DNA of 64,000 nucleotides from Nitrospirota bacterium (GCA_963749655.1 CAVVOB010000023.1:79819-143818), one strand, 5' to 3'. Shown: positions 40,641 through 56,038, numbered from the stretch's first letter. Numbers and translations: made by a program. The notes: generated from the letters alone by a model not told the origin.

Positions 40641-40739
40641 TAATACTAAGTAAAGAGCGGATGGGAATCATTGCTCACGAAAGTTTACTCTGCAGGAAAG
40701 AAATCGAGGGCAGCAAACGCCTGGAAAGGAGGAGCGAAC

Positions 40740-40910
40740 ATGTACGCGTGCATATGCGGCTTCGACGCTGAGTCGGAAGGCGATCTCATGTCCCATGTTC
40801 TCGAGCGCCACTGCAAGTCCTATGGACTCGAAACATGCTCGATCACGGGGTCGGATTGGTCTGCAGGAAGCACGGAGCCGGATTTTGGTCATCCAAGAGG
40901 CCAGACTTAA
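40740..40910 (+). CDS. Small zinc-finger-like protein (56 aa)
   Basis: AGGAGG RBS; MYACICGF...L.SH....H C2H2-like pattern. Confidence 0.6.
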   Translation: MYACICGFDAESEGDLMSHVLERHCKSYGLETCSITGSDWSAGSTEPDFGHPRGQT

Positions 40911-41102
40911 ATTGGCAAGCTAGTAAGCTTTGGAGACATGCCCGGCTGGGGTGGCCGGGCAGAGCGGTTAGTCGTCTGCGTTTTTGTCTTCACCGCGAAG
41001 GCGCAAGGGTCGCGAGGAAGGCAAATACATCGCAGTATCTCAGTTCAGATTTTCTTGCCGGCCCATCCAAAGTGCCGGGTGATCGAATCACAGCCACCGG
41101 AA

Positions 41103-41560
41103 TCAGTGGTTGTCAAAGTCATTGTATTTTGCCTTGGTCCGCATGGCGGCGCAGATTTCCAGAAGAGCCTGCCTGTTTGCATCAGCTTCGGCAATAAACC
41201 GGACATCCATTTCACGAATAGCAGCACGAGCCTTGGTAAACGCCTTGAAAAATTGCGGTTGGGTCAAAAGATCGTTGCGGGAGTCCGCCTCTTATAGGAG
41301 GCTTTCATTTTGCCTGTTTTGTGACGGGCAAGCAGGAAGGCGAACGTCGCCTGGTTATGATTTATTGCGGGTATGGTACTGAAGACGCTTGCGCAATTGT
41401 TCGTTCGTCCGACATAGAGATACTTCTGGTTCTGCGAGAACAGGTAGACTCCCTTCGCAGGCATTGCTTTCGGTAACGCACCTACTTTGTACGTGCGGAC
41501 GTTCAAGAGCGCTGAACATTTCTTTTCTACCGCTGCGATGGCTTTCGTAAAAGAATCCAT
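41103..41560 (-). CDS. GIY-YIG nuclease-family protein (frameshifted)
   Basis: KGVYLFSQNQKYLYVGRTN.LRKRL..H; continues in another frame to ...QALLEI..AMRTKAKYNDFDNH*; start abuts the hsdM stop. Confidence 0.75.
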
Positions 41561-43160
41561 TTATCCCCTCTCTGTGCCGCTGCGCGAGGACAGATCGGCA
41601 GTTATTTCCCTGAACTGCTCCAACGCCGCTTCCAGGTCTTCCACGATCTCCTGGGCGATCACGTCGGGATCGGGGAGGTTGTCGGAGGCTTCGAGGGATT
41701 CGTCCTTGAGCCAGAAGATGTCGAGGCTGGCCTTGTCGCGGCTTACGAGTTCATCATAGTTATATGACCGCCAGCGGCCTTCATTTTTAACTTCCTCTCC
41801 CCTCGTGGGAGAGGACTGAGGTGAGGGGGACTTTTGCTTCTTCTTTCCCTTCTCCGTCATTCCGGCCCCCGAGCCGGAATCCAGTTGCAACCTTCCAGGT
41901 AGCCTTACGATGATGCCGATTCTCGGGATTGTAGCATTTCACAAACTCGTCGAGGTCGGAGCGCTGGAGGGAGCTTCGTCTTGAGCGTGAAGTGCATGTT
42001 CGTGCGGAGGTCGTAGATCCAGAGCTTCTTGGTCCAGGGCGTTTCGCTTGCCGGCTTTTTGTCGAAGAACAGCACGTTCGCCTTCACACCCTGGGCGTAG
42101 AACAGGCCCGTGGGCAGGCGCAGGAGCGTATGCACGTCGCACTCGTGCAGGAGCTTTCGTCCTGACCGTCTCCCCTGCCCCGCCTTCGAACAGGACGTTA
42201 TCCGGCACGACAACTGCCGCGCGGCCGTTCTGTTTTAAAAGGGTCTTTACATGCTGGATGAAGTTGAGCTGTTTGTTCGATGTCGTGGCCCAGAAGTCCT
42301 CGCGCTCGATGATATCGGTCTCCCGTGATACCTTGCCGTTCTCGGCAACGATGGTGGTGCTGCTCTTCTTGCCGAAGGGAGGATTGGTCAGTACGATATC
42401 GAACCGGTCTCCCGGGTCGGCGGCAAGAGAGTCCGAAACGATGATAGGAAGGTCCTTGTCGGTCCCGATGCTGTGGAGCATCAGGTTCATGGCGCAGAGC
42501 CGGGCCGTGCTCTGGACCAGTTCCCAGCCCTTGAAGGTCGAGCCTTTGAGCTTGCGCTTCTCGTCGGCGCTCATGTTCGGATTGTGCTTTACCACGTAAT
42601 CGTGCGCGGCCAGGAGAAACCCGCCGGTCCCGCACGCAGGATCGCAGAGCGGTCTCTTTCGGCTTCGGCTGGATCACGTCAACCATGGCCTGGATCAAAG
42701 GACGGGGAGTGAAGTACTGGCCTGCGCCGGACTTGGTATCCTGTGCGTTCTTCTCCAGGAGGCCTTCGTATGCGTCCCCTTTTACATCAGCGCTCATCAC
42801 CGACCAGTTTTCCTTATCGATCAGGTCGACGACAAGACGTCGTAATTTCGAAGGGTCCTGGAACTTGTTCTGGGATTTGTTGAAGATCAGGCCGAGCAGA
42901 CCTTTTTCATTGCCCAGGCTTTCGAGCATGTGGCGGTAGTGGTCGAACAGATCGTCGCCGTCCTTCTTTAAGAGCGTGGGCCAGTTGTACTTCGCAGGCA
43001 CGGCACTCGGCTGATTGTACGGCGGCTTCGTGCGCTCGTCGGCCATCTTGAGGAACAGCAGGTACGTAAGCTGCTCCACGTAGTCGCCGTAGCTCATCCC
43101 ATCGTCCCGGAGGACGTTACAGTAGTTCCAGAGTTTTGAAACGATTGCGGCAGGTGTCAT
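41561..43160 (-). CDS. hsdM: Type I R-M DNA methyltransferase HsdM (several frameshifts; REP-derived insert near the C-terminus)
   Basis: GQYFTPR, DPACGTGGF (across a frameshift), NPPF, LRLPTGLFYAQGVKANVLFF, SLDIFWLKD. Confidence 0.9.
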
Positions 43161-43193
43161 TGATAATTCCTTTTCAGGGTCAAAGATACTCGA

Positions 43194-43517
43194 TCAAACA
43201 GCGTGTAATTCCTTGCCACGCAGGATCCTCTTGAGGAAGGCGATCCGTTTCTTCGCTTCAGACAGAAGGGTGCGGTACCGCGCCCGATCTTCCTTGAGGG
43301 CGTCATAATACTTGATATCTTTGCCGAACAGCTTGCCTTTGTACGCAAACTGCACCTTGCCCTTTTCCCGCGACATGAGGTAGCAATACTGGCGTCCCTT
43401 TACATACTTTTTTACCAGGACCCCGCGCGGAAGCGCTGCCAGGGCCTTCTCATATTCCCCCTGGGCAAGCATTGCCTTCTTGAGTTCTTCTTCCAGGACG
43501 TTCTTAATAATTTTCAT
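43194..43517 (-). CDS. Small basic protein (107 aa), DUF6788-like; candidate DNA-binding regulator
   Basis: LPRGVLVKKYVKGRQYCYLMSREKGKVQFAYKG beta-sheet pattern plus coiled coil; directly under IR-promoter module P1. Confidence 0.7.
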   Translation of the reverse strand: MKIIKNVLEEELKKAMLAQGEYEKALAALPRGVLVKKYVKGRQYCYLMSREKGKVQFAYKGKLFGKDIKYYDALKEDRARYRTLLSEAKKRIAFLKRILRGKELHAV

Positions 43518-43530
43518 AACAACCTATCCC

Positions 43531-43578
43531 GTTACCATACAGTGGCTCGATTATATGATGCTGTATGGTAACCGTCAA
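43531..43578 (-). promoter_or_regulatory. IR-promoter module P1
   Basis: GTTACCATACA-N20-TGTATGGTAAC (43531-43572); minus strand TTGACG-N17-TATAAT with the -10 box in the spacer. Confidence 0.85.
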
Positions 43579-43650
43579 GGGATCATTGAAACTCCGGCTT
43601 ACGGCAATTCAGACCGGAGCACCCGCGAATGGTTGTTCAGGATGAGTACT

Positions 43651-43998
43651 TTATCCCCAGTATATTCCGGTCGGATCGCGGTCAAGCTCTGCAAAGACAA
43701 GGTCAAGGTTCTTAACAGGCGACAGATTTTCGTCCTCATGCCATTTATTATTTCGATCACTCCAATAGAGCATCCAGGTTTGCGCTTTCGGATTATAACG
43801 GAGCTGTGCGACTGCGGATTTTGTCCATTCCGTCATAGCCGGCGTCCAGGGGACGCGATTTTCCCATATCGTCACCGAGTTGCCGCGGAACGTGTACGAA
43901 AGCCTGATCTTATCCGCGACCCGCGGCGGCACCCGCTTCGCGATAAAGGCATCCAGTTTCTTTGCGACCGAGTTTTTCGCTGCTGCGGGAAGAGGCAT
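43651..43998 (-). CDS. DUF3024-domain protein
   Basis: AQLRY......WMLYWSDRNNKWH...DPTGIYWG. Confidence 0.85.
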   Translation of the reverse strand: MPLPAAAKNSVAKKLDAFIAKRVPPRVADKIRLSYTFRGNSVTIWENRVPWTPAMTEWTKSAVAQLRYNPKAQTWMLYWSDRNNKWHEDENLSPVKNLDLVFAELDRDPTGIYWG

Positions 43999-44040
43999 CG
44001 ATACTCCTCGCTTCGTTTGCTCACCAAGTAAACCTTACCG

Positions 44041-44088
44041 GTTACCATACACGTGCGCTAATTATGTCTTCTGTATGGTAACGGGCAA
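44041..44088 (-). promoter_or_regulatory. IR-promoter module P2
   Basis: GTTACCATACA-N20-TGTATGGTAAC (44041-44082); TTGCCC-N16-CATAAT. Confidence 0.85.
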
Positions 44089-44221
44089 GAGGTGTCTGAT
44101 ACCGAGACTACGGGAGGACAGTTCATTTGCGCAACAGGTCGCCGCAGCCTGAATGATCGATGACACATGAGTCCTGAACCCCTTTGACCTCAATCTATTA
44201 TTCGCCAAGAGACCCTTACCG

Positions 44222-44269
44222 GTTACCATACACGCTCCCTAATTATGCCACCTGTATGGTAACGGCCAA
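44222..44269 (-). promoter_or_regulatory. IR-promoter module P3
   Basis: GTTACCATACA-N20-TGTATGGTAAC (44222-44263); TTGGCC-N16-CATAAT. Confidence 0.85.
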
Positions 44270-44319
44270 AGAAGTTCTGTGTTTCTGAATCTGGTGAAAC
44301 ATCCTGCAGGTTTTTGATA

Positions 44320-44602
44320 GCCCAGGCTTTCGAGCATGTGGCGGTAGTGGTCGAACAGATCGTCGCCGTCCTTCTTTAAGAGCGTCGGCCAGTTGTACTT
44401 CGCGGGCACGGCACTCGGCTGGTTGTACGGCGGCTTCGTGCGCTCGTCGGCCATCCCCCTTCTATCCCCTCTCCCTCTGGGAGAGGGCGAGGGTGAGGGT
44501 GAGGGCGGTCAGCTGCTCCACGTAGTCGCCGTAGCTCATCCCATCGTCCCGGAGGACGTTACAGTAGTTCCAGAGTTTTTGAACAATTGCGGCAGATGTC
44601 AT
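44320..44602 (-). pseudogene. hsdM: hsdM 5' fragment (allele 2) with REP insertion
   Basis: MTSAAIVQKLWNYCNVLRDDGMSYGDYVEQL-[REP]-MADERTKPP...HMLESLG; ATG overlaps the parE stop (ATGA). Confidence 0.9.
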
Positions 44603-44898
44603 GGTAGTTTCAGAAGCCTTTCACTTCGCCAGACTCGAACGATGCGCACCTTGTTTTTATCATGCCGATAAACGATGCGAAAAGGCGGGTAAATGATCTC
44701 TCGCAGATGTTCGACATTGAACTCAGGTACGACACGGCCGCTCAGCGGGTGTGCGCCCAGCCGCTCGATCTTGGCGACGATCTCTGCAATAATCCGCTTC
44801 CCCACATCAGGCACGCCTTCGCCCGAGTACCATGCCTGCATTTCTTCAAGGTCCTTGATCGCTGATGCAGCAAACGTTATCCGTGCTTGTTCAGCCAT
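44599..44898 (-). CDS. RelE/ParE-family toxin
   Basis: F..SAIKDLEE...P.SGRVVPEF....LREII..PFRIVY...VRIVRVW. Confidence 0.9.
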   Translation of the reverse strand: MAEQARITFAASAIKDLEEMQAWYSGEGVPDVGKRIIAEIVAKIERLGAHPLSGRVVPEFNVEHLREIIYPPFRIVYRHDKNKVRIVRVWRSERLLKLP

Positions 44899-44902
44899 GG
44901 GA

Positions 44903-45172
44903 TCACTTCAGACCAAGGCGTTTTTTCGCCTCGGAGAGCGAGATCTCGCGGCCTTCTTCCAGGTCCATCAGTCCCTTCACCACTCCCTGCATAAAAGCGC
45001 GCTCTTCGGTTTCTTCCTCGTAATCCTTGAGCGATCGGACCACGGCAACCCCGCGGCCCCTGCTCGTGAGCAAAATAGGCCGGTGCGTCTCTTGCGCATG
45101 GGAAACCACCTTGCCGGGGTTCACCTTCAGGTCGCTGAGAGGGACGATGTCTTCGGAAAACTTGGTACTCAT
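44903..45172 (-). CDS. Phd/YefM-family antitoxin
   Basis: DIVPLSDLK...RPILLTSRGRGVAVV.SL.DYE. Confidence 0.9.
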   Translation of the reverse strand: MSTKFSEDIVPLSDLKVNPGKVVSHAQETHRPILLTSRGRGVAVVRSLKDYEEETEERAFMQGVVKGLMDLEEGREISLSEAKKRLGLK

Positions 45173-45253
45173 AGTAGACCTCCTTAATGGTACTCTTAAC
45201 AGGTCTTATTATAGCACTTATAGACAGGTCTGTATATAGTAGCGCTCCCTTCG

Positions 45254-46188
45254 TAGGGTCAGGTCCATACTCTTTACCTTTTATAGTGACCGCACAGAAT
45301 TCTGCTTACATAGGTGGAATGCACACCGAGGTGATCCGCAATTGAACGCTGCGTGTATCCGTACTTCTCGACAGCCTCGGCGATTTTCTTGTCCCGCTTT
45401 CCCTTTGTCGTCCAGTATACTCTGACTGAATATTTTTTCAAGTGGCGGCCTGTTGGCGTAACGCTGGCTCTTGGGTATCTCGGGAATGTCTTTATGCCTT
45501 CTGAGATGATCGGCCAGGCTGTCGACAAAATCATCTTCGCCGAGAAGTGCCTGGCCTTTAACCTCGTTCCAGATGGTTTCCTTACCGATCCCCCATTTTA
45601 CAAATTGGCGATACTCTTTCTCTGCCTTGGCTCTTGTTCGGCTGAATTGTCCGAGTATCCAGTCCGTGGTAAGACACGGGTGAGCCGTATCCTTCCCCGC
45701 CCGTGGCCCGATAGCTTGACCATCTCCAGTCTTCGGGCTTTTCCACCATCCTGGCGCGGACCGGATTAAGGACCACATAGCGGCAGACTTCAAGCAGGTG
45801 TGTGTCCTTTTGAATGAGGATGGCCTTGTACCTGCCCTGAAAAAGGTGGCCGGTCTTGTTGTAGCGCTTGTTACGCGCCTGAGTATAAACACCGTTTAAC
45901 TGTCTCATGCCGAGGGAAAGGTTTCCATCCGGCGTTTCTATCATGAGGTGGTAATGATTGTCCATGAGGCAGTAGGCGTGACAGAGCCAGTGATAGCGTT
46001 TATTGACGAAGGCGAGGATCTTGAGAAATGTCTCCCGATCCTGGTCGTCTTTGAACACGGCTTTTTTATCGTTGCCGCGGTTGGTTATGTGATATACCGC
46101 ACCGGGGTATTCTATGCGGAGAGGGCGTGCCATGAAGGGAGTCTATCAGAAGTTAAAGCAAAAGTCCAACAGTATGGACCTGACCCTA
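45254..46188 (-). mobile_element. TIR-flanked HUH/Y1 transposase element no. 3 (CDS about 45274-46133, frameshifted)
   Basis: MARPLRIEYPGAVYHIT.RGN, CLMDNHYH, LNPVRA, WSSY; perfect 18-bp TIRs TAGGGTCAGGTCCATACT (45254-45271) and AGTATGGACCTGACCCTA (46171-46188). Confidence 0.88.
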
Positions 46189-46237
46189 AGATGTTCAAAA
46201 ACCTACAACTTGGTGATGCATCACAATCCCGCAAAGT

Positions 46238-47160
46238 GTCAGGTCTTTTATTTTGGCGTTACGCCTTTCCCCTCACCAGATTGCTGATTGTTGAATAATG
46301 CATATTCAGATGAGCGGCTATCTGCTGCTGAGTATAACCATATTTCTGCACGGCATCAATGATCTTCTTATCTCGTTTTTTCTTGTCCAGTATCACATTT
46401 TTCAGGAATATCTTGTCGAGAGACGGCCTATTCACATACCGATGACTCTTGGGTATTTCAGGAATGTCCTGATGTTTCCTGATATGGGAGATCAGCCCTT
46501 CCACAAAATCGTCTTCGCCCAGGATGGACTGTCCCTTCACCTCTCTCCAGATTGTCTCCTTGCCGATCCCCCATTCGACGAATTGCCGGTATTTCTGCTC
46601 TGCCGTGATCCTCTTCCGGCTGAATTGTCCGAGAATCCAATCCGTGGTCAGGCACAACGCCGGTGATTCGCGGCCTGCTGTCGCGAGGTAGCTGGACCAT
46701 TTCCAGGCTTCCGGTCGTTCTACCATGCGTGCCCGAACAGGGTTTAATACCACATACCGGCATACTTCGAGAAGATGGCTGTCTTTCTGAATAAGAATCG
46801 CTTTGTATCGGCCCTGGAACAGATGGCCAGTCCTTTGATGACGTTTATTGAAAAGCTGTGTATAGACCCCGTTCAACTGACGCATTCCGAGGGAGAGATT
46901 GCCGTCTGGCGTCTCGATCAGCAGATGATAGTGGTTGTCCATCATGCAGTAGACATGACAGACCCAATTGTATCGCTTATTAACGTGCAGGAGTGTGTTC
47001 AGGAAGTTGATGCGGTCCTGGTCGTCTTTGAAAACGGCCTTCTTTTCATTTCCGCGGGAGGTGATGTGATAGACGGCACCGGCGTATTCTATGCGGAGGG
47101 GGCGGGTCATGCGGCGACAGTATCACAGGAAGGAGAGAATGTCAAAATAAAAGACCTGAC
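46238..47160 (-). mobile_element. TIR-flanked HUH/Y1 transposase element no. 2 (intact CDS 46259-47110)
   Basis: 283-aa RAYT-like protein with C-terminal HTH; 18-bp TIRs GTCAGGTCTTTTATTTTG (46238-46255) and CAAAATAAAAGACCTGAC (47143-47160). Confidence 0.9.
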
Positions 47161-47304
47161 CCTATAGGTTCGATTGCGGCAGGGGGTAACAGTTTAGCCC
47201 TTTTTGACTTTTATTGAGATGCAGTCCGCAATTTATTTGACTTGCGGGCTTTTTTAGGGCAACATATATGAGTATTTATACTCATATATGCAGGAGGCAG
47301 ACTT

Positions 47305-47583
47305 ATGAAACGAATCGATCTCTTGAGGAAACAGCGGGTTCGGATCAGGGAAGACATTGGGGCAATGCTCGACAGTTTCCTGATTGGCACCGTCGCCAAA
47401 TCCCCTTCCATGTCCGGGCACAACCTGACTACCAAGGTGGAGGGAAAAACCGTTACGCTGTATGTCCGGAAGGACATCGCCCCCATGGCAACAGAGATGA
47501 GTTTGCGGTACACGAAGCTCTGGAACCTCATGCAGAAGCTTTCCAAGGTCAACTGGGAAATTCTGAGCATGGAGAACAAATAG
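47305..47583 (+). CDS. IS accessory protein (92 aa, DUF6788-like)
   Basis: AGGAGG RBS; HNLTTKVEGKTVTLYV pattern; stop 2 bp before the transposase start. Confidence 0.75.
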   Translation: MKRIDLLRKQRVRIREDIGAMLDSFLIGTVAKSPSMSGHNLTTKVEGKTVTLYVRKDIAPMATEMSLRYTKLWNLMQKLSKVNWEILSMENK

Positions 47584-47585
47584 GC

Positions 47586-49130
47586 ATGCCGCGATATCCG
47601 TGGCCGCCTCACGATTTTGCCTGCCTTTATGAGCACACTTGCCCGTATCTTGACGGGTTGTCCACGAAGTGGGTGTTGGGACAGTATCGAAGCCTGGATG
47701 ACGACCGGTTGGAGTATCTCCACCTCATCGATATCTACCGTAAGGAGGTGCGGGAGCGGGATGACCGGATACGGGTCCTGGAGCGGGAGCATGCGGAACT
47801 TCGAGCCAAATATCAGGCCTTGCACCGTAAGCAGTTCAAGCCGAACAGAAAACGGGATGAGAACAGCGGAGGGGAAGAGGGTTCATCGTCAGCCTGCGCG
47901 CAAAAGAAGAAACGCGGGGCGCCTGTGGGACATCCGGGGTGGACAAGGCCGGTCCCGTCGCGGATCGATCGGACTATTCCGGTGCCCGCCCCGGCTGTTT
48001 GTCCTCACTGCGGGTCGCATGACTTGACACTTGAGGGTTCAATACATGAGCACATTCAGGAGGACATCGTCGTAAAACCCACGACTACGGTTACGAAATA
48101 TGTGCATGAGGAGGCGTTCTGCCCGCGCTGCAACCGGGCGGTCGTGGGGGCCGGTCAGGACGAGATCCCCAACGCCGCCATCGGGCCGCTTGCCAAGTCC
48201 ACGGCCGGGTATCTGCGTTATGAAATCGGCATTTCCTACCGGAAGGTGCGGCAGATCCTCTCTGACTTGTTCGGGCTTTCCTGCGTGCCGGCCTCGCTCG
48301 TGGGTTTTGACAACAAGGCCGCCAAACGGGGGGCGGCCATTTACGAGGATGTCCGCGAAAAGATCAGGGCTTCGGACGTGGTGCATGCCGACGAGACCTC
48401 CTGGAGAAATGACGGTAAAGGGCATTTTGTATGGTTCGCGGGCAATAACGATCTTGCGTTCTTCCATATTGACAGGCATCGGTCACAGGATGCGGCGAAG
48501 ACCGTTTTCGGAAAGGCTTTTGACGGAGTTCTGATTCGCGACCGCTATGCGGCCTACAACGGCATTGGTCTCGACTGGCAGGCGTGTCTGGCGCACATCA
48601 TAACCAACGCCAAGGACATCCGCCGGGAGCATGCGCTCCTGCCGACGCGTGAGCAGGATAACGCCGTCACCCGTTTCTGCGACCAGGTCGCCAACTTCTG
48701 CGCGCGGGCATGTGAGGCAGGGCAGAAACTGAAATCCGGCGAGAGCCCCTGGGAGCATGCGGCGAACATCGAAAAGTGTTTCATCACCGAGCTGAAGGGA
48801 ATCTGCAAAAGGCCGCTCTCGTTCAAACCAGCCGAGACCCTGAGGAGTTTCCTCGTCGGCCCCGAGCAGGTACATCTCTTCACCTTCCTGCGTATCCCCG
48901 GCGTCCCGCCCACGAACAATCATGCGGAACAATCCCTGCGAAAGATGGTGATCATGAGGAAGGTCAGCTTCGGCACCCGTTCGGACAACGGACTCAAAAC
49001 CCACAGCGTCATCCCTACGCTTGTGCAGACCGCGAAAAGACAAGGCGTCCATCCACGTGAATTTCTGCACATTCTCCATACTGCCGATGCCGCGACGGCG
49101 CAAGCCGCGCTGTATAACAATTCAAGTTGA
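47586..49130 (+). CDS. IS66 transposase TnpC
   Basis: Coiled coil, KRGAP.GHPG, CPHCG zinc finger, HADET, DRYAAY, QACLAH, TNNHAEQSLR. Confidence 0.95.
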   Translation: MPRYPWPPHDFACLYEHTCPYLDGLSTKWVLGQYRSLDDDRLEYLHLIDIYRKEVRERDDRIRVLEREHAELRAKYQALHRKQFKPNRKRDENSGGEEGSSSACAQKKKRGAPVGHPGWTRPVPSRIDRTIPVPAPAVCPHCGSHDLTLEGSIHEHIQEDIVVKPTTTVTKYVHEEAFCPRCNRAVVGAGQDEIPNAAIGPLAKSTAGYLRYEIGISYRKVRQILSDLFGLSCVPASLVGFDNKAAKRGAAIYEDVREKIRASDVVHADETSWRNDGKGHFVWFAGNNDLAFFHIDRHRSQDAAKTVFGKAFDGVLIRDRYAAYNGIGLDWQACLAHIITNAKDIRREHALLPTREQDNAVTRFCDQVANFCARACEAGQKLKSGESPWEHAANIEKCFITELKGICKRPLSFKPAETLRSFLVGPEQVHLFTFLRIPGVPPTNNHAEQSLRKMVIMRKVSFGTRSDNGLKTHSVIPTLVQTAKRQGVHPREFLHILHTADAATAQAALYNNSS

Positions 49131-49385
49131 AAAGAAAACCATCGGAGCATACAATAGTGGCGTGAAGACTTCCAACCTTGGATAATCAGGTCAGAGAGGG
49201 ACGCTTTGTCCTTTCGGCAGGTCGACATCTTTTGGGAGTAAAAAGGGCTAAACTGTTACCGGCAGGGTAACAGTTTAGCCCTTTTTGACTTTTATTGAGA
49301 TGCAGTCCGCAATTTATTTGACTTGCGGGCTTTTTTAGGGCAACATATATGAGTATTTATACTCATATATGCAGGAGGCAGACTT

Positions 49386-49664
49386 ATGAAACGAATCGAT
49401 CTCTTGAGGAAACAGCGGGTTCGGATCAGGGAAGACATTGGGGCAATGCTCGACAGTTTCCTGATTGGCACCGTCGCCAAATCCCCTTCCATGTCCGGGC
49501 ACAACCTGACTACCAAGGTGGAGGGAAAAACCGTTACGCTGTATGTCCGGAAGGACATCGCCCCCATGGCAACAGAGATGAGTTTGCGGTACACGAAGCT
49601 CTGGAACCTCATGCAGAAGCTTTCCAAGGTCAACTGGGAAATTCTGAGCATGGAGAACAAATAG
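49386..49664 (+). CDS. IS accessory protein (copy 2)
   Basis: Identical translation to 47305-47583. Confidence 0.75.
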   Translation: MKRIDLLRKQRVRIREDIGAMLDSFLIGTVAKSPSMSGHNLTTKVEGKTVTLYVRKDIAPMATEMSLRYTKLWNLMQKLSKVNWEILSMENK

Positions 49665-49666
49665 GC

Positions 49667-51211
49667 ATGCCGCGATATCCGTGGCCGCCTCACGATTTTG
49701 CCTGCCTTTATGAGCACACTTGCCCGTATCTTGACGGGTTGTCCACGAAGTGGGTGTTGGGACAGTATCGAAGCCTGGATGACGACCGGTTGGAGTATCT
49801 CCACCTCATCGATATCTACCGTAAGGAGGTGCGGGAGCGGGATGACCGGATACGGGTCCTGGAGCGGGAGCATGCGGAACTTCGAGCCAAATATCAGGCC
49901 TTGCACCGTAAGCAGTTCAAGCCGAACAGAAAACGGGATGAGAACAGCGGAGGGGAAGAGGGTTCATCGTCAGCCTGCGCGCAAAAGAAGAAACGCGGGG
50001 CGCCTGTGGGACATCCGGGGTGGACAAGGCCGGTCCCGTCGCGGATCGATCGGACTATTCCGGTGCCCGCCCCGGCTGTTTGTCCTCACTGCGGGTCGCA
50101 TGACTTGACACTTGAGGGTTCAATACATGAGCACATTCAGGAGGACATCGTCGTAAAACCCACGACTACGGTTACGAAATATGTGCATGAGGAGGCGTTC
50201 TGCCCGCGCTGCAACCGGGCGGTCGTGGGGGCCGGTCAGGACGAGATCCCCAACGCCGCCATCGGGCCGCTTGCCAAGTCCACGGCCGGGTATCTGCGTT
50301 ATGAAATCGGCATTTCCTACCGGAAGGTGCGGCAGATCCTCTCTGACTTGTTCGGGCTTTCCTGCGTGCCGGCCTCGCTCGTGGGTTTTGACAACAAGGC
50401 CGCCAAACGGGGGGCGGCCATTTACGAGGATGTCCGCGAAAAGATCAGGGCTTCGGACGTGGTGCATGCCGACGAGACCTCCTGGAGAAATGACGGTAAA
50501 GGGCATTTTGTATGGTTCGCGGGCAATAACGATCTTGCGTTCTTCCATATTGACAGGCATCGGTCACAGGATGCGGCGAAGACCGTTTTCGGAAAGGCTT
50601 TTGACGGAGTTCTGATTCGCGACCGCTATGCGGCCTACAACGGCATTGGTCTCGACTGGCAGGCGTGTCTGGCGCACATCATAACCAACGCCAAGGACAT
50701 CCGCCGGGAGCATGCGCTCCTGCCGACGCGTGAGCAGGATAACGCCGTCACCCGTTTCTGCGACCAGGTCGCCAACTTCTGCGCGCGGGCATGTGAGGCA
50801 GGGCAGAAACTGAAATCCGGCGAGAGCCCCTGGGAGCATGCGGCGAACATCGAAAAGTGTTTCATCACCGAGCTGAAGGGAATCTGCAAAAGGCCGCTCT
50901 CGTTCAAACCAGCCGAGACCCTGAGGAGTTTCCTCGTCGGCCCCGAGCAGGTACATCTCTTCACCTTCCTGCGTATCCCCGGCGTCCCGCCCACGAACAA
51001 TCATGCGGAACAATCCCTGCGAAAGATGGTGATCATGAGGAAGGTCAGCTTCGGCACCCGTTCGGACAACGGACTCAAAACCCACAGCGTCATCCCTACG
51101 CTTGTGCAGACCGCGAAAAGACAAGGCGTCCATCCACGTGAATTTCTGCACATTCTCCATACTGCCGATGCCGCGACGGCGCAAGCCGCGCTGTATAACA
51201 ATTCAAGTTGA
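49667..51211 (+). CDS. IS66 transposase TnpC (copy 2)
   Basis: Identical translation to copy 1. Confidence 0.93.
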   Translation: MPRYPWPPHDFACLYEHTCPYLDGLSTKWVLGQYRSLDDDRLEYLHLIDIYRKEVRERDDRIRVLEREHAELRAKYQALHRKQFKPNRKRDENSGGEEGSSSACAQKKKRGAPVGHPGWTRPVPSRIDRTIPVPAPAVCPHCGSHDLTLEGSIHEHIQEDIVVKPTTTVTKYVHEEAFCPRCNRAVVGAGQDEIPNAAIGPLAKSTAGYLRYEIGISYRKVRQILSDLFGLSCVPASLVGFDNKAAKRGAAIYEDVREKIRASDVVHADETSWRNDGKGHFVWFAGNNDLAFFHIDRHRSQDAAKTVFGKAFDGVLIRDRYAAYNGIGLDWQACLAHIITNAKDIRREHALLPTREQDNAVTRFCDQVANFCARACEAGQKLKSGESPWEHAANIEKCFITELKGICKRPLSFKPAETLRSFLVGPEQVHLFTFLRIPGVPPTNNHAEQSLRKMVIMRKVSFGTRSDNGLKTHSVIPTLVQTAKRQGVHPREFLHILHTADAATAQAALYNNSS

Positions 51212-51379
51212 AAAGAAAACCATCGGAGCATACAATAGTGGCGTGAAGACTTCCAACCTTGGATAATCAGGTCAGAGAGGGACGCTTTGTCCTTTCGGCA
51301 GGTCGACATCTTTTGGGAGTAAAAAGGGCTAAACTGTTACCGGCAGGGGTCATAAACTGATGATGCCTTTCTTTTAACC

Positions 51380-51498
51380 TTGAACTTCATTATTCACTGC
51401 TGTATATTATTTCCAAGCCGCAAGGCTGGTGGTCCATTACCTATGGTTCAGGACCGTGGCAGCGCCTCAGTCGCCGTTAAGACTGGGGCTTTTTTTAT
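51380..51498 (+). ncRNA. Candidate ~85-nt small RNA with its own promoter and terminator
   Basis: TTGAAC-N17-TATATT, then AGCC-GCAA-GGCT and GGTCC...GGACC hairpins, then the terminator GCCTCAGTC..GACTGGGGC-TTTTTTT. Confidence 0.5.
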
Positions 51499-51557
51499 TG
51501 ATTCTTTCCCCAAAGGGAGAGGGCTGGTGTAGGGAAAGAAAGTCGGAGAGGGTATTC

Positions 51558-51752
51558 TTACTTTTGTTTCTCTTCAACAACAATATCTTCCGGCTTAATC
51601 AAGACAACCTTGCCGTCACGCCACGCCGCAACGGGATTCCCGGCTTTTTTGTGCTGCAAAAGAGCCTGCTGTACGGCCTTTTTTAAAGCCTTATCGATTT
51701 CCTTGCCCTCATGGAAAAGTTCATCAATTGTTTTCTTTTCTGCAACGCTCAT
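51558..51752 (-). CDS. Small protein (64 aa), partner of the zeta-like kinase
   Basis: AVQQALLQHKKAGNPVAAWRDGKVVLI. Confidence 0.8.
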   Translation of the reverse strand: MSVAEKKTIDELFHEGKEIDKALKKAVQQALLQHKKAGNPVAAWRDGKVVLIKPEDIVVEEKQK

Positions 51753-52335
51753 ATTCTTCCACCTCTAATCAAACTCCACGTTTTTGGATCGTAAATAGTT
51801 TCGTTTGCATCTCCCCTTCCGTCGGCAACGATGCGTGGCCAGGACGGTCCGAATTATCGTATATTCGCCATGTGTCCGTCAGTGGCCGGTAGAGCCGGAA
51901 GAAGTTCTCGATACCCTTATTATACCGCCTCCGAATGGTTTCCTCAGCCACGTCATGCCCGCCCATGCGGACTCGTTCGGCCACGCGGGCAACGGCAAAA
52001 CCCGCGCTCGGAAGCCACAGGAACACCAGGTGGAAAGTATACCCGCTTTGCTTCAGTTTTGCAATCCAGGGCGCAAAGGACCTGCTCGCCAGCGTTGTCT
52101 CAAATGCGAAATCCACGCGCTCGTTGGCAAGATAATGCAGCCGCTCCAGCATGACCCGGCCTGCATGGAACGCCGCGCTCTCTGGCTGGAACGCGGAGAG
52201 CCCCAGGGCGATGACGTCGGCATTCACGAACTCCGTTACTCCCAGCGTCCCCTTGAGCAGCATCGGCGCTGTCGTCGATTTCCCGGCCCCGTTTGGTCCG
52301 GCTATGACAATGACGTGCGGATTCTTTTCTGACAT
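51749..52335 (-). CDS. Zeta-toxin/AAA_33-family P-loop protein (probable C-terminal frameshift)
   Basis: IAGPNGAGKST, FVNAD.IA, FAFETTLA, RVAERVRMGGHD; the corrected frame ends in an ATGA overlap with the next gene. Confidence 0.88.
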
Positions 52336-52402
52336 CAGTTCAACCTCTCGAAGTAAACAACATGAACAAATTCAAATCGCCCCGAACTGCCTTTACTCAT
52401 CA

Positions 52403-52450
52403 GTTACCATACAATGTCTCATATTCTGATCCCTGTATGGTAACGGCCAA
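52403..52450 (-). promoter_or_regulatory. IR-promoter module P4
   Basis: GTTACCATACA-N20-TGTATGGTAAC (52403-52444); TTGGCC-N16-CAGAAT. Confidence 0.85.
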
Positions 52451-52477
52451 GGGATGTTTGAGCGTTTTGATCTGTTT

Positions 52478-52821
52478 AGGCCGAGCAGCCTTTTTTCCAA
52501 TGACAACGTCTTTCTCCATAGCTCCTCGCCCTCGGAGGGAGAGGAATTCAAAGGTGAGGGTGAAAAGTCTTTGCCCAGGCTTTCGAGCATGTGGCGGTAG
52601 TGGTCGAAAAGATCATCGCCGTCCTTCTTTAAGAGCGTGGGCCAGTTGTACTTCGCAGGCACTGCACTCGGTTGGTTGTAAGGCGGCTTCGTACGCTCGT
52701 CTGCCATCTTGAGGAATAGTAAATAGGTCAACTGCTCCACGTAATCGCCGTAGCTCATCCCGTCGTCCCGGAGGACGTTACAGTAGTTCCAGAGTTTTGA
52801 TACGATTGCCGCTGGTGTCAT
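52478..52821 (-). pseudogene. hsdM: hsdM 5' fragment (allele 3) with REP insertion after LESLG
   Basis: Protein identical to the hsdM N-terminus up to HMLESLG but with many synonymous changes; residual EK.LLGL after the insert. Confidence 0.9.
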
Positions 52822-52853
52822 TGATAATTCCTTTAAAAGGCCAAAGATACTCG

Positions 52854-53002
52854 ATCAAACAGCGTGTAATTCCTTGCCACGCAGGATCTTCTTGAGGAAC
52901 GCGATCCGTTTCTTCGCCTCAGACAGAAGGGTGCGGTACCGCGCCCGATCTTCCTTGAGGGCGTCATAATACTTGATATCTTTGCCGAACAGCTTGCCTT
53001 TG
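52854..53002 (-). pseudogene. 3' remnant of the 107-aa gene (copy of about 43194-43342)
   Basis: Near-identical DNA; truncated ~13 bp from the TIR of the adjacent HUH element. Confidence 0.85.
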
Positions 53003-53015
53003 AACCTGCCTAAGT

Positions 53016-53937
53016 GTCAGGTCTTTTATTTTGGTGTTACGCCTTCCCTCTCACCAGATTGCTGATCGTTGAATAATGCATATTCAGATGAGCGGCTATC
53101 TGCTGCTGAGTATAACCATATTTCTGCACGGCATCAATGATCTTCTTATCTCGTTTTCTCTTGTCCAGTATCACATTTTTCGGAATATCTTGTCGAGAGA
53201 CGGTCTGTTCACATACCGATGACTCTTGGGTATTTCAGGAATGTCCTGATGTTTCCTGATATGGGAGATGAGCCCCTCCACAAAATCGTCTTCACCCAGA
53301 ATAGACTGTCCCTTTACCTCTCTCCAGATAGTCTCCTTGCCGATTCCCCATTCGACGAATTGCCGGTATTCTTGCTCGGCCTTTGCCCTCTTTCTACTGA
53401 ATTGTCCAAGGATCCAGTCCGTGGTCAGACACGGTGCTGGTGATTCCCGCCCCGCTGTGGCACGGTAGCTGGACCATTTCCAGACTTCCGGTCGTTCAAC
53501 CATCCGTGCCCGGACAGGATTTAATACCACGTACCGGCAAACTTCGAGAAGATGACTGTCTTTCTGAATAAGAATCGATTTGTATCGGCCCTGGAACAGA
53601 TGGCCAGTCCTTTGATGACGTTTATTAAAAAGCTGTGTATAGACCCCGTTCAACTGCCGCATTCCAAGTGAAAGATTGCCGTCAGGCGTCTCGATCAAGA
53701 GGTGATAATGGTTGTCCATCATGCAGTAGGCATGGCAGAGCCAGTTATACCGCTTATTGACATGCTGGAGCGTGTTCAGGAAGTTGATGCGGTCCTGGTC
53801 GTCTTTGAAGACGGCCTTCTTTTCATTGCCGCGGGAGGTGATGTGATAGACGGCACCGGCGTATTCTATGCGGAGGGGACGGGTCATGGGGGGAATTTAG
53901 CAAAGAACAGGAAGAATGTCAAATTAAAAGACCTGAC
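53016..53937 (-). mobile_element. TIR-flanked HUH/Y1 transposase element no. 1 (CDS 53037-53887, frameshift near 53180)
   Basis: Close paralog of 46259-47110; TIRs GTCAGGTCTTTTATTTTG (53016-53033) and CAAATTAAAAGACCTGAC (53920-53937). Confidence 0.9.
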
Positions 53938-54040
53938 CCTATAGACTCCCGGCGTTATTATCATAACAACTGTCGTTAATCGCCCAAGAGTTCATAAATG
54001 TTCAACCCTTTCAAAAAAGTGCGACGTTTAGCTAAATATA

Positions 54041-56038
54041 TTAGCTGCCAATCCCAAGTTTTTCAAAGAATGCCTTATGTCGTTGTTTAGCGTCCAGGAC
54101 AATCTTGTCAAACGCGATTATTTCAATATGCGCATTATGGTTACGGTTGTAATTGTAATAGCCTAATTCACCTTGAAGCTTGGCATAGTTACCATTCTCT
54201 GCAAACTCAGTAATTTGGGAGGTTATATCGCAAATGGCGTAACAGTAAAAACGGGTTGTATCGTCTACCGTGACAGGTCGACCATTAGTTTGCCATATAC
54301 CACTCTTACGAATATCCCGAACATATCTAAATAACTGTTTCGTCGGGTCCTCGTCAAATTTCTTTCTTTGTGGCTTCTTAAATTCAAGCAAAGAAACAAC
54401 TCGTGCTCGTCGGTCGTCACCCACTTCTGAGTAGATCAATATGTCGGGGCGATCTTTGCTGTTAGATGTTGTGACATCGCATAGGCGTTTGTCCGAAGCA
54501 GCACACGCATGGAACGCCAGAAGTTCGTCAACAAGCCACAGGTTGTGATTCTCATATGAAATAATATCGGTATCAGCTTTGCGGGGAAAGACGATATCAT
54601 GAACAATATCTTCCTTGCTATATTTTTTATCTTTATTAAGTTCAAGTTTTTTATCAAGCAGATCGATTATCAATTTTCGGAAAAGCACATACCCTGCCAG
54701 TTGATCTTTCTGAAAGTCTTCCAACTTACCTGTAAGTTCATCGTACTGGGATTTTATTTCATCAACACTTGTTGCTTGCGTCCTAAGAAGTTTCTCACTA
54801 TTCTTCTTTATCTCATATTCTGCTTTTCCCTTGTAGGAATATAGAACTTGAGTCATCTTTTCATCAGAGGTATTCAGTTCAATGTCTTTAAGTGCCTCCG
54901 GACAGTACTTCACAACGGCACGCAACATCGGCGATTCATTCTGGGTATACTTTGCGATTCTCTCAGCTTTCTGTGTTTCAACGAAAGTGATAACCTTCGC
55001 AAGATGATTCTTTGCGCGGCTCACAACTTCCTGCTGAATTTCATTCATTGTAATTTCTTTATTGCTGTTTGTGAGTAGATTTGGCTCAGATGGAATAGTG
55101 AACTCTTGTCGATACTCATCGACATTTTCATCTAAGAATGGTGAGGTAATGTAAGCTGAGTAGAAATATTTATCGCCGTCGTCATCAAACTGAATTGAGG
55201 TACCAAGTAAGCTGCCAATCGATATTCTTTTTACATCCCTTCCATGTGCACAATAAACAAGCTGATGTGTTTGTGCGCGAGTTCCGTAAAGACGAATATG
55301 ATGAACTGAAAATGGCTTAGATTGTATCTCAATGTGTTCGGTCGTAATGTTGCCTTTGATATCGTTGAATAAATCATGAAGGTTTATTGCGCGATCAGCG
55401 GAATCATCAATAATTTGGATTGTAGGCGCCAAATCGCTTATAAATCTTGCAAGGCAATGCTCGAATACACGCTGTGCAATTTTTGTGGATGTCTTGTACG
55501 CACTTGGCTGTTTTCTGTAATCTTCATTGAATCCAATAAGACGAACTACAGTTTGTCTCTTTTTCGCTTTTGAGATTTCAACAGGCTGCTCTTGGACGCC
55601 TTTATCAATTGAAAAAATAATATTTCTATCAGCCAGTGCACTCTCTTGGTGTTGAAAGGTGCTTGCAATTTCGACGAGATCAAATGCTTTAAGCCACAGG
55701 AACCTCCCAATGCCTTTTCCACCCTTAACAAGTTTGTATGTTGAATCTGCGGTTTGGAAGGAATCAAAATTTTCATTAGTAAAGCCGATACCATTGTCCT
55801 CGATGTCGAATCCAGTTATATTAGGTAGCGTATCATCACCCTCTAATCCAAGCGAGGTTTGGTTTAAGTCCCGCTTAACTCGAATCGTTATCAATCCCTT
55901 TGATAAGTCACCAGCCTCCTCTATTGCCTGGATAGAATTTATAACTGCTTCGAATACTGGTAGTAGTGCCTCTGATTTAAAATGTCGAAGGTTTCGAATT
56001 TTCCCTTGGAGACTGGCTTTAAGCATTACATCCGACAT
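54041..56038 (-). CDS. GHKL (HATPase_c/MORC-like) ATPase with C-terminal PD-(D/E)xK-like domain
   Basis: EAVINSIQA, IEDNGIGF, GGKGIGRF; C-terminal RPDILIY...LLEFKKP; AT-rich. Confidence 0.8.
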   Translation of the reverse strand: MSDVMLKASLQGKIRNLRHFKSEALLPVFEAVINSIQAIEEAGDLSKGLITIRVKRDLNQTSLGLEGDDTLPNITGFDIEDNGIGFTNENFDSFQTADSTYKLVKGGKGIGRFLWLKAFDLVEIASTFQHQESALADRNIIFSIDKGVQEQPVEISKAKKRQTVVRLIGFNEDYRKQPSAYKTSTKIAQRVFEHCLARFISDLAPTIQIIDDSADRAINLHDLFNDIKGNITTEHIEIQSKPFSVHHIRLYGTRAQTHQLVYCAHGRDVKRISIGSLLGTSIQFDDDGDKYFYSAYITSPFLDENVDEYRQEFTIPSEPNLLTNSNKEITMNEIQQEVVSRAKNHLAKVITFVETQKAERIAKYTQNESPMLRAVVKYCPEALKDIELNTSDEKMTQVLYSYKGKAEYEIKKNSEKLLRTQATSVDEIKSQYDELTGKLEDFQKDQLAGYVLFRKLIIDLLDKKLELNKDKKYSKEDIVHDIVFPRKADTDIISYENHNLWLVDELLAFHACAASDKRLCDVTTSNSKDRPDILIYSEVGDDRRARVVSLLEFKKPQRKKFDEDPTKQLFRYVRDIRKSGIWQTNGRPVTVDDTTRFYCYAICDITSQITEFAENGNYAKLQGELGYYNYNRNHNAHIEIIAFDKIVLDAKQRHKAFFEKLGIGS

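Follow-up and report, generated by a model that had tools for sequence, protein, structure and literature searches.

Within a restriction-modification (R-M) island of a Nitrospirota bacterium, the same two 11-bp arms, arranged as GTTACCATACA-N20-TGTATGGTAAC, recur in front of different genes, raising the question of what these modules do and which factor, if any, reads them. We searched the window (the whole stretch of DNA that was analysed, 64,000 nucleotides) for this pattern, allowing 3 mismatches, and found four copies, all with 0 mismatches and with spacers of exactly 20 bp that are unlike in sequence; module matches arose in 0/100 dinucleotide shuffles of the window. The original prediction of four modules with identical arms and variable 20-bp spacers is thereby borne out. 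Half-sites with at most one mismatch were seen 8 times against 0.28 expected, and all 8 lie within the four modules. Its further remark, that none was seen outside the R-M island, agrees with a genome scan in which the whole assembly (4,272,696 bases, 39 contigs, 86.6% complete) holds only the same four modules, the reversed-pattern control over the assembly giving 0 matches. One more exact 11-mer lies on another contig, within a coding sequence and without a partner arm. Two half-site matches on contig C14, likewise in coding sequence with no partner arms, were taken as chance.

All four modules read on the minus strand. In this orientation, a TTGNCN hexamer adjoins arm 1, a -10-like hexamer lies in the spacer 16-17 bp downstream, and arm 2 falls at approximately +1, as follows:

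43531..43572, minus strand: module 1, putative p107 promoter-operator; -35 TTGACG (43573-43578), 17 bp, -10 TATAAT (43550-43555)
43531-43541, minus strand: arm 2 of module 1, just before the predicted start site
44041..44082, minus strand: module 2; -35 TTGCCC (44083-44088), 16 bp, -10 CATAAT (44061-44066)
44222..44263, minus strand: module 3; -35 TTGGCC (44264-44269), 16 bp, -10 CATAAT (44242-44247)
52403..52444, minus strand: module 4; -35 TTGGCC (52445-52450), 16 bp, -10 CAGAAT (52423-52428)

The -35-like and -10-like hexamers that had been named for every copy are thus present on the minus-strand reading, and in the window modules they lie 16-17 bp apart, within the 16-18 bp expected of a sigma-70 promoter upstream of a same-strand gene. 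Both hexamers of modules 2-4 are weak. The register recurs beyond the window. Within the window's family, TTG adjoins arm 1 in 28/35 modules and is followed by a -10-like hexamer after 16-17 bp, and the layout of module 1 also precedes p107 homologues in 4 other genomes. Among gene-proximal modules of other phyla, TANNNT begins at module position 15 in 71/83 and TTGRC begins 9 nt before arm 1 in 52/83, fixed positions that again give a 17-bp spacing. The distal copy of tandem modules (n=55) has no -10, suggesting that it serves as operator only. Module 1 has the further property that its inverted repeat spans the core promoter and predicted start site with a putative regulator gene, p107, directly downstream. 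As to expression, a search of sequencing runs gave small shares only. Contigs of four metatranscriptome runs matching 42900-44600 fall on two parts alone, the REP-like insert and the conserved 5' segment of hsdM, and none reaches the modules or p107. Many of these contigs continue into unlike sequence.

The genes and gene fragments around the modules are the following:

43194..43517, minus strand: p107, a 107-aa basic protein, candidate repressor on the basis of its linkage to the module and of arm/subfamily co-variation
42651..43160, minus strand: hsdM copy A, codons 1-170, 33 bp behind p107
42658-41588: rest of hsdM copy A, in a different frame
43651..43998, minus strand: module 2 cargo, a 115-aa DUF3024 protein (PF11225, 4.5e-31; PADLOC PDC-S43, 2.3e-21)
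44311..44602, minus strand: 5' fragment of hsdM copy B (codons 1-30 and 39-86), ending 47 bp upstream of module 3
approximately 44455-44512: REP-like insert in hsdM copy B
45582-46133: Y1 gene with its own 32-nt inverted repeats (45251-45282 and 46160-46191) and a GTAG motif, unlike the modules
51769..52335, minus strand: module 4 cargo, a 188-aa zeta-toxin-like P-loop protein (PF06414, 1.3e-11)
52567..52821, minus strand: 5' fragment of hsdM copy C (codons 1-85, a REP-like insert, then several further codons), lying upstream of module 4
52858..53007, minus strand: 3' half (residues 58-107) of a second p107 copy, 94% identity, cut by a Y1-transposase element

With its stop at 43194 and the hsdM start at 43160, p107 is a small first ORF before hsdM, and copy A is probably co-transcribed with it from module 1. 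The cassette behind module 2 also occurs with a module in related loci L032 and L005, and zeta-toxin-like cargo stands behind a module in L032, L233 and L208. PDC-S43 is a candidate defence family of PADLOC. Module 3 has no credible cargo; downstream of it lies only a 139-bp remnant of a DUF3024-type leader, which runs into module 2.

Across genomes, the exact motif is found in 109 genome stretches from more than ten phyla and in 2 viral stretches. In 86 of the 111 motif-found loci, a p107 homologue begins 8-113 bp (median 24) behind the module and usually overlaps an NTP_transf_8 nucleotidyltransferase gene; the partner genes tested, encoding 202-229 aa, matched PF12281 NTP_transf_8 in 8/8. 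The other 25 loci have no p107 homologue beside the module, which in 19 of them is at least 400 bp from the contig or locus edge. Among the modules listed upstream of 85 homologues, the spacer is 20 in all but 3. Modules occur in 12/64 genomes of the window's order, where p107 lies behind a module in 5/5 genomes with at least three modules (full-length in four, the first 57 residues only in G001) and is found in 0/52 module-less genomes; the other 7/12 module-bearing genomes have one or two modules and no canonical p107. The modules of those seven genomes lie mostly on short contigs of fragmented assemblies.

The module also heads cargo of other kinds. On 52 metagenome contigs, 103 modules head 35 cargo clusters, of which p107 is the commonest (19), and the cargo behind modules includes DUF3024/PDC-S43, zeta-toxin-like, Fic, VapBC and other genes. 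On contig L208, the canonical operon of tandem modules, p107-like gene and nucleotidyltransferase is itself one cassette, next to zeta-toxin and Phd/RelE-like cassettes with the same module. The regulator mostly stands alone in the window's own family, and the arrays are punctuated by duplicated hsdM 5' fragments. The motif had been described as tied to R-M and toxin-antitoxin (TA) cargo, which holds in the window's clade only; elsewhere, its home is the operon of the small protein and NTP_transf_8.

As a reciprocal test, we searched 401 genomes from the phylum with a protein profile, independently of the motif, and obtained three subfamilies. Canonical members have two tandem modules in 2/2 new loci, and one canonical locus has an additional module at +1005. 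Subfamily 2 has TTTTCCACCAC-N24-GTGGTGGAAAA at -29..+16 in 15/15 loci, with a second copy of its inverted repeat at the operon 3' end in 11/15, and subfamily 3, in which a p107-like domain is fused to the nucleotidyltransferase, has TTAACTACA-N20-TGTAGTTAA at -51..-14 in 7/7 loci. The 11-bp arms of subfamilies 2 and 3, which are paralogous, differ from the canonical ones while the architecture is the same. Taken together, the linkage to p107 and the change of arms with protein subfamily point, on comparative sequence evidence, to the arms being most likely the operator of the p107 family.

The AF2 model of p107 (pLDDT 86) comprises a helix, three strands and a long helix. We found 162 homologues of p107, and the family extends to 1124 clusters at 50% identity (E up to 0.001). 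Searches of p107 against Pfam, NCBIfam, PADLOC and PHROGs gave no match and no recognised DNA-binding family, and PDB sequence searches with the family profile and the partner nucleotidyltransferase gave no meaningful match. Foldseek of the model against the PDB returned none at E up to 0.001 (best, prefoldin beta, E 0.034), and a wide VIA-align search returned only coiled-coil hairpins, with Z up to 9.7, a range common for long helices; these results thus speak neither for nor against DNA binding. The prediction of a two-copy complex (score 0.01, controls not included) speaks neither for nor against pairing. The nearest Atlas clusters are automatically named DUF6788, a domain carried by 64-89% of their members. 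By hmmscan, DUF6788 (PF20586) gave weak matches in 3/37 p107-family members (best E 0.13) and none in the window's genome, and hhalign of the p107 family with 8 true DUF6788 members gave a probability of 17% (E 0.0014, 62 columns). Literature searches, with supplementary files outside their scope, found both 11-mers only in papers unrelated by title and no mention of NTP_transf_8/PF12281 or DUF6788/PF20586.

Could the arms be read by something other than p107? Candidates would be the NTP_transf_8 enzyme, a host factor, or a dedicated sigma or activator, and such a reading draws on the fact that p107 has no DNA-binding fold family recognisable by sequence and that modules are kept in genomes in which no p107 was found. 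However, the enzyme was not found in the window's assembly and is absent from 23/24 array-type loci with p107, where the arms are still invariant, and a host factor can explain neither identical arms in more than ten phyla nor the differences in arms between p107 subfamilies of a single phylum. We consider a different binder unlikely. A role in site-specific recombination, with the modules as attC-like sites or an integrase core for cassette capture and the promoter as a passenger, would fit their position at the 5' edge of cassettes whose order and combination differ between genomes of the clade, the truncated hsdM copies that stop shortly upstream of them, the 3'-end repeat copies of subfamily 2 and the additional canonical module. 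However, the Pfam scan of 28 window ORFs and 56 related-locus ORFs found no tyrosine or serine recombinase and, as transposases, only Y1, IS66 and IS110. The junctions between hsdM and the cassettes lie 32-50 bp upstream of arm 1, outside the module, and the hsdM codon at which they occur varies (44-47, 82-94, 141, 183 and 208), and a variable 20-bp spacer with an in-register -10 is unlike a crossover region. Moreover, the 86 loci with a p107 homologue have the module at a fixed distance before one gene family and no cassette arrays, and we regard recombination as very unlikely to be its function.

Pairing of the arms would form an 11-12-bp stem (-7.0 to -9.4 kcal/mol as ssDNA), and three Y1_Tnp genes lie in the island, as might be expected of an element that acts as a nucleic-acid structure, either an ssDNA hairpin for Y1 (HUH) transposases or, in read-through transcripts, a stem-loop of RNA. 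However, a 20-nt loop makes the hairpin weak, and its stability simply follows from the arms being a palindrome; within a subfamily the arms show no co-variation and hence carry no structural signal. The modules flank none of the Y1 genes, one of which has the unrelated flanking repeats and GTAG motif listed above, and the Pfam scan found no Y1 gene in the module-holding loci L021, L022 and L024. A transcript from the module's own promoter would contain arm 2 only, and no Rfam family reaches its gathering score in 40000-57000. A structural role is thus hardly plausible. Between the two alternatives put forward originally, the recombination or HUH-hairpin site is not supported, given the separate repeats of the Y1 genes, the lack of a recombinase with the modules and the position of the junctions, and the operator of a repressor governing a cassette regulon, with p107 as candidate binder, is well supported by comparative genomics.

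We propose that each module combines, in one element, a sigma-70-type promoter and a bipartite operator. The 11-bp arms, 31 bp or three helical turns from centre to centre, would present themselves on the same DNA face, with arm 1 filling the -35/-10 spacer and arm 2 lying over the start site, so that a protein on both arms would exclude RNA polymerase. The binder would most likely be p107, encoded behind module 1, one of an uncharacterised family of proteins of about 105 aa whose own promoters almost always include this module. Ancestrally, a p107-type gene may have overlapped the NTP_transf_8 nucleotidyltransferase gene, the two making up a toxin-antitoxin/Abi-like pair. Most regulators in the window's clade would since have lost the nucleotidyltransferase, and the promoter-operator would have been copied before unrelated accessory and defence-candidate cassettes embedded in the hsdM 5' end. 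p107 would keep its own gene, hsdM and the cassettes silent as a group, and its loss or inactivation would release them all together. The sequences themselves show the motif, its promoter register, its link to the protein family across phyla, the change of arms with subfamily and the spread to other cargo. That p107 binds DNA and represses, where transcripts start and what signal might induce them belong to the inferred part of the model.

Judged from sequence, it is quite likely that the modules represent one promoter with a built-in two-armed operator preceding a small protein in many phyla, and that p107 acts as both self-repressor and cassette repressor; it probably represses its own gene and, in this genome, several accessory cassettes in the restriction-modification locus. 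Some of the sameness of the arms in the clade may come from recent copying and not from selection, but the invariance across phyla is harder to explain in this way. As for the kind of system, we rate it as a probable form of autoregulated TA/Abi-type operator with putative RptR-like control of a type I R-M island. A more far-reaching proposal, which we put forward only tentatively, is that the p107 family is a new DNA-binding class and, freed from its nucleotidyltransferase partner in the Nitrospirota-like clade, the master switch of a recombinase-free integron-like platform there. A long helical hairpin would carry at its tip the three-stranded sheet that reads the 11-bp half-site, and the hairpins would act as a ruler that places two heads exactly three helical turns apart. 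On such a platform, cassettes would be captured at the hsdM 5' end, each capture duplicating the hsdM start, and every captured cassette would be wired to the same operator-promoter.

To our knowledge, few dedicated regulators have been described for the on/off control of defence islands (C proteins, BrxR/CapW and RptR). The p107 family offers a testable case, an unannotated small-protein family with an operator that is letter-identical across more than ten phyla, in which natural specificity variants of the arms allow swap experiments. It also provides a clade where embedded cassettes of many kinds, with defence candidates and toxins, stand behind copies of one operator-promoter. It further points to an AbiE-like pairing of a small-protein gene with NTP_transf_8 that has not been described before, and shows a recurrent route to cassette arrays through repeated duplication of the hsdM 5' end. 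If p107 is indeed a master switch, its loss, e.g., upon phage attack, would fire the whole arsenal together with the methylase.

C proteins with their C-boxes in type II R-M systems and BrxR/CapW in BREX/CBASS are likewise small regulators, each dedicated to a defence operon that it heads and each with a palindromic operator. We know of no case in which they control arrays of independently promoted cassettes. They are helix-turn-helix proteins (Xre-like or WYL), whereas p107 has no Pfam HTH match. C proteins and BrxR/CapW are both named in the introduction of PMC12255303. RptR, described in PMC12255303, is a small repressor whose gene is the first ORF ahead of hsdM. It governs a type I R-M island in which DarTG2 is embedded and represses its own promoter at sites overlapping the -10; p107 likewise lies 33 bp upstream of hsdM, behind module 1. 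However, RptR forms an all-alpha homodimer and recognises TAGCTA palindromes of 6 bp, present as three direct repeats (PMC12255303), whereas the p107 model is a helical hairpin with a three-stranded sheet, its sites are 11-bp arms 20 bp apart, and TAGCTA is absent from the four modules. The distinction is drawn from the model and the operator, and in the window each cassette has its own copy of the operator-promoter.

According to PMC7319586, inverted repeats that overlap the promoter are the sites through which AbiEi and Rv2827c repress operons with a nucleotidyltransferase toxin. AbiE-type operons begin with a small gene, followed by the nucleotidyltransferase, and some of their promoters have two tandem repeat pairs. 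Canonical p107 relatives share this gene order, the overlapping genes and one or two tandem palindromic sites, and by analogy they may form a toxin-antitoxin/Abi-like pair with NTP_transf_8. In contrast to AbiEi, p107 is without the winged-helix domain (PF13338 and related) by Pfam, and AbiEi is absent among the 25 of 52 matched families listed for 37 p107-family members scanned at E up to 10. The partner is NTP_transf_8 (PF12281) rather than the DUF1814 of AbiE, and a constant gap of 20 bp separates its 11-bp arms, compared with 23-bp repeats 3 or 13 bp apart. In the window, moreover, no such enzyme is present, while other genes have come to carry the operator. This spread resembles an integron in that small accessory cassettes, shuffled but all in the same orientation, form arrays in which a palindromic element bounds each cassette. 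It differs from an integron in that no integrase was found with the modules, that the module is of fixed length with invariant arms and stands at the 5' end as a promoter, and that the repeated scar is not a palindrome but a duplicated hsdM 5' fragment.

The window contains four copies of the pattern GTTACCATACA-N20-TGTATGGTAAC (43531, 44041, 44222 and 52403), each with 0 mismatches in a search allowing 3, and none of 100 shuffled sequences contains any match, so that the original prediction of four perfect modules holds as written. Half-sites with up to 1 mismatch number 8 against an expected 0.28, all 8 within the four modules; the occurrence of the module is real and far beyond chance. It had also been claimed that none lies outside the restriction-modification (R-M) island, and a scan of the whole assembly (4.27 Mb in 39 contigs, 86.6% complete) at up to 2 mismatches returns these four and no fifth, with 0 matches for a reversed-pattern control. 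A script scan of the assembly finds one lone exact 11-mer on another contig, within coding sequence and with no partner arm. The genes around the modules are all on the minus strand, and, read on that strand, all four modules have the anticipated promoter-like layout: a -35-like TTGNCN hexamer abuts arm 1 and a -10-like hexamer lies 16-17 bp downstream in the spacer, followed by 8-9 bases and arm 2.

Modules of the window, their promoter-like hexamers and the genes that follow
43531-43572, minus strand: module 1, -35 TTGACG, gap 17 bp, -10 TATAAT; 13 nt, then the gene of the 107-aa protein p107 (43517-43194), with hsdM 33 bp beyond
44041-44082, minus strand: module 2, -35 TTGCCC, gap 16 bp, -10 CATAAT; then a DUF3024 gene (43998-43651)
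44222-44263, minus strand: module 3, -35 TTGGCC, gap 16 bp, -10 CATAAT; then nothing but a 139-bp stretch similar to a DUF3024-type leader, which continues into module 2
52403-52444, minus strand: module 4, -35 TTGGCC, gap 16 bp, -10 CAGAAT; then a zeta-toxin-like P-loop gene (52335-51769)

The modules are surrounded by a type I R-M locus with hsdR (60291-57337) and hsdS (57340-56066), which also carries three Y1_Tnp genes, two identical tandem IS66-family copies and one Phd/ParE pair. The tandem transposase genes (47184-51345) encode 620 aa each, are 100% identical and lie 2081 bp apart. The Y1_Tnp (IS200/RAYT-like) genes lie at 45582-46133, 46259-47110 and 53171-53887; one is flanked by 32-nt inverted repeats with GTAG (45251-45282 and 46160-46191), and a Y1 element has cut a second p107 copy, of which residues 58-107 remain at 52858-53007. 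Between hsdS and a Y1 element, a 665-aa ORF (54041-56038, minus strand) occupies a low-GC segment (39.8% versus about 55%); it has no family match, only a weak PADLOC match to HEPN_IX (E 0.0018), and may be an embedded defence gene.

Within the order to which the window belongs, 12 of 64 genomes, its own included, carry the module at up to 2 mismatches (reversed control 0 in all), and in four of them the copies cluster (5, 5, 5 and 8). Because TTG abuts one arm in 28 of the 35 modules collected from these loci, a direction could be assigned to every module, and the ORF after each directed module lies on the same strand as the module promoter. As the tabulated neighbours show, the cargo is diverse, comprising VapB/VapC, DUF1841, DUF6933, a 174-aa unknown, Fic, RhuM, DUF3800, DUF3024 and zeta-toxin-like genes, on islands that also carry GmrSD, Wadjet and type I R-M genes. 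Two cargo families match PADLOC candidate defence families (DUF3024 as PDC-S43, DUF6933 as PDC-S63/S12), and such embedded cargo fits, in outline, the guilt-by-embedding idea of a preprint (10.1101/2024.01.29.577857). The sole recurrent cargo among these genomes is p107, which follows the best promoter (TTGACG with TATAAT or TATGAT) and closes the array on its downstream side in G000, G015, G020 (twice) and G035; a further genome, G001, has a partial copy. It is present in all five genomes with at least 3 modules (the partial copy counted) and in none of the 52 module-less genomes of the order; it was not found in the seven genomes with one or two modules.

The exact motif also reaches far beyond this order. 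A scan of one genome per species, with taxa taken from record titles, places it in 109 stretches of Elusimicrobia, Planctomycetota, Omnitrophota, Desulfobacterota, Verrucomicrobiota, Clostridia, Fibrobacter, Caldisericum, Lentisphaerae, Aminicenantes, Nitrospirota and further taxa; viral contigs add 2 more stretches. The arrangement usual there has two modules in tandem, their starts 53-59 bp apart, with TTGACA between the two copies, 3 nt before the proximal arm 1, and TATAAT 3 nt after the arm, the gap again being 17 bp. The gene that follows starts M-(G/A/K)-(V/I)-IKGVLKEEL and is a p107 homologue; with the p107-family profile, such a gene is found 8-113 bp (median 24) behind the module in 86 of the 111 loci. 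In the remainder the module lies less than 400 bp from an edge (5 loci) or does not (19), and in one the gene is 220 bp away. The homologue usually shares 19 or 28 nt with an overlapping gene whose product, of about 227 aa, belongs to Pfam NTP_transf_8 (PF12281) in all eight examples tested (202-229 aa), and a profile of this partner matches 62 of the 111 motif loci. The linkage points to an ancestral unit of operator(s), small protein and nucleotidyltransferase. In an actinobacterial record (L061, 30-71), a far longer perfect palindrome at the end of the contig has an exact module at its centre, and no p107 homologue accompanies it; the context there is probably different or artefactual.

The strongest evidence on what binds the arms comes from a search that does not use the motif, in which the p107-family profile was run over 401 genomes of the phylum and matched in 45. 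Three subfamilies can be told apart among these matches, and each has an inverted repeat of its own, set in a shared architecture.

Subfamilies of the p107 family and their upstream repeats
Canonical: two tandem modules upstream (GTTACCTTACA ... TGTATGGTAAC), in 2 of 2 new loci
Subfamily 2: 108-120 aa, then a nucleotidyltransferase; TTTTCCACCAC-N24-GTGGTGGAAAA at -29..+16, in 15 of 15 loci
Subfamily 3: p107-like domain fused to the nucleotidyltransferase, about 311 aa; TTAACTACA-N20-TGTAGTTAA at -51..-14 plus a third half-site, in 7 of 7 loci

In subfamily 2 the -10 lies in the spacer and the second arm coincides with codons 3-6 of the gene itself, while the natural fusions with NTP_transf_8 (~311 aa; L161, L162, L168, L172, L173, L177 and L182) each have their own operator variant. 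A protein-DNA recognition code would predict just this: arms that are letter-perfect across phyla within a subfamily but that, inside a single phylum, change with the subfamily. This co-variation argues against a host factor as their binder. Since neither the window's assembly nor 23 of the 24 array-type loci with p107 have the nucleotidyltransferase, the small protein is left as the candidate. The original prediction of a repressor operator that forms a cassette regulon, with the 107-aa protein as candidate binder, thus gains comparative support from the 86 of 111 loci and from the co-variation of arms and subfamilies; the operator reading is well supported by these comparisons and p107 is likely its repressor. 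On sequence comparison, we regard the explanation as a whole, a promoter-operator with p107 as candidate repressor, as probable. A second copy of the subfamily 2 repeat spans the nucleotidyltransferase stop codon (+993..+1038) in 11 of 15 loci (among them L163, L165, L166, L169, L170, L174, L175, L178, L181 and L183), and one canonical locus (L087) has a module at +1005; operators at both operon ends could serve looping, act as a roadblock or mark a cassette boundary.

The AF2 model of p107 (pLDDT 86) places helices at 2-28 and 65-100 around three strands at 33-61, a predicted helical hairpin with a small basic sheet at its tip. The sheet would read a half-site, and two hairpins would set the 31-bp distance. 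p107 has no match in Pfam, NCBIfam, PADLOC or PHROGs; a word-index search returns 162 homologues, of which just one bears a functional name (translation initiation factor 1, as given by its source), and an exhaustive profile search of the family gives 1124 clusters at E <=0.001 and 366 at <=1e-10. The ESM Atlas auto-label of the nearest clusters is DUF6788, which hmmscan finds in only 3 of 37 family members (best E 0.13) and whose model matches nothing in the window's genome; hhalign of the family against eight true DUF6788 members gives 17% probability. None of these three tests confirms the label, though a distant link may exist. Literature searches yielded no mention of PF12281 or DUF6788 and, judged by title, nothing concerning bacteria for the 11-mers.

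The module's spread in the window's clade shows in metagenomes, where a scan with its TTGGCC variant finds 103 modules on 52 contigs; for 92 of them an ORF (45 aa or longer) lies no more than 300 bp away, and these ORFs form 35 clusters.

Cargo clusters on the metagenome contigs
p107: 19
174-aa family: 10
Fic: 6
DUF6933: 5
Cys-rich family, about 140 aa: 5
DUF3024: 4 + 2
RhuM: 3
Zeta-toxin-like: 3

On one contig (L208) the order is an hsdM fragment; two tandem modules with a p107-like gene and a 227-aa nucleotidyltransferase; an hsdM fragment with a 196-aa ORF; an hsdM fragment, module and zeta-toxin-like gene; an hsdM fragment, module and Phd/RelE-like pair; and hsdM. By this order, the canonical operon forms a single cassette alongside others that have taken on its promoter-operator; the window has lost the nucleotidyltransferase gene and p107 directly precedes hsdM. 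A 217-aa Fic-domain cargo follows p107 behind its own module in L023 (8922-9575), L216, L202 and L207, and weakly matches the NTP_transf_8-partner profile (31-42 bits).

The first hsdM codons are themselves present three times in the window (copies A, 42651-43160; B, 44311-44602; C, 52567-52821), B ending 47 bp upstream of module 3 and C about 40-120 bp upstream of module 4. The same arrangement is seen in L023, L030, L031, L032 and 26 of the 52 metagenome contigs, with up to five 5' copies on one contig (loci include L199 and L208). The copies look as though the start of hsdM had been duplicated again and again to build up an array of cassettes. The original prediction had offered, as an alternative to an operator, a recombination or hairpin site. 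Both are unlikely. The fragments in metagenome contigs stop variably, at codons 44-47, 82-94, 141, 183 or 208; the hsdM/cassette junctions lie outside the module, 32-50 bp upstream of arm 1, where a semi-conserved stretch starts (…CCCGCAG…CAGACACCTC-TTGGCC); and no recombinase was found among the scanned ORFs of the window and related loci, all of which speak against the module as a crossover site. Exactly such a pattern would be expected from homologous exchange, Campbell-type or unequal, by way of the repeated hsdM 5' end. The window's hsdM (41588-43160, minus strand) shifts to another frame close to 42655: its codons 1-170 share 98.8% identity with HsdM of another genus's genome and codons 168-491, in a different frame, 66.7%, a split which suggests that the cassettes carry the 5' segment along with them. 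The frame change itself may reflect a joint left by recombination, a pseudogene or a fault in the assembly. G+C-rich short palindromic inserts (…CCCTCTCCC…GGGAGAGGG… type) that look like REP/MITE-type elements interrupt fragments B (~44455-44512) and C (52510-52566), and a similar element sits between modules in L021.

The promoter-operator reading matches, in concept, two known kinds of control. In AbiE-type toxin-antitoxin (TA)/abortive-infection (Abi) operons, as outlined in PMC7319586, the product of the first gene acts as repressor at inverted repeats that overlap the promoter, and the ancestral p107-like/NTP_transf_8 unit would follow the same logic of operator, small protein and nucleotidyltransferase. 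RptR, in the outline of PMC12255303, is a small repressor whose gene is the first ORF ahead of hsdM; it controls a type I R-M island in which a TA system is embedded, and the p107 gene likewise directly precedes hsdM in a type I R-M locus. However, p107 has no AbiEi or HTH signature and by its model is not all-alpha, the operator has 11-bp arms separated by exactly 20 bp and lacks TAGCTA, and the partner enzyme is of another family than that of AbiE. The main difference from both AbiEi and RptR is that the operator-promoter is multiplied before many independent cassettes.
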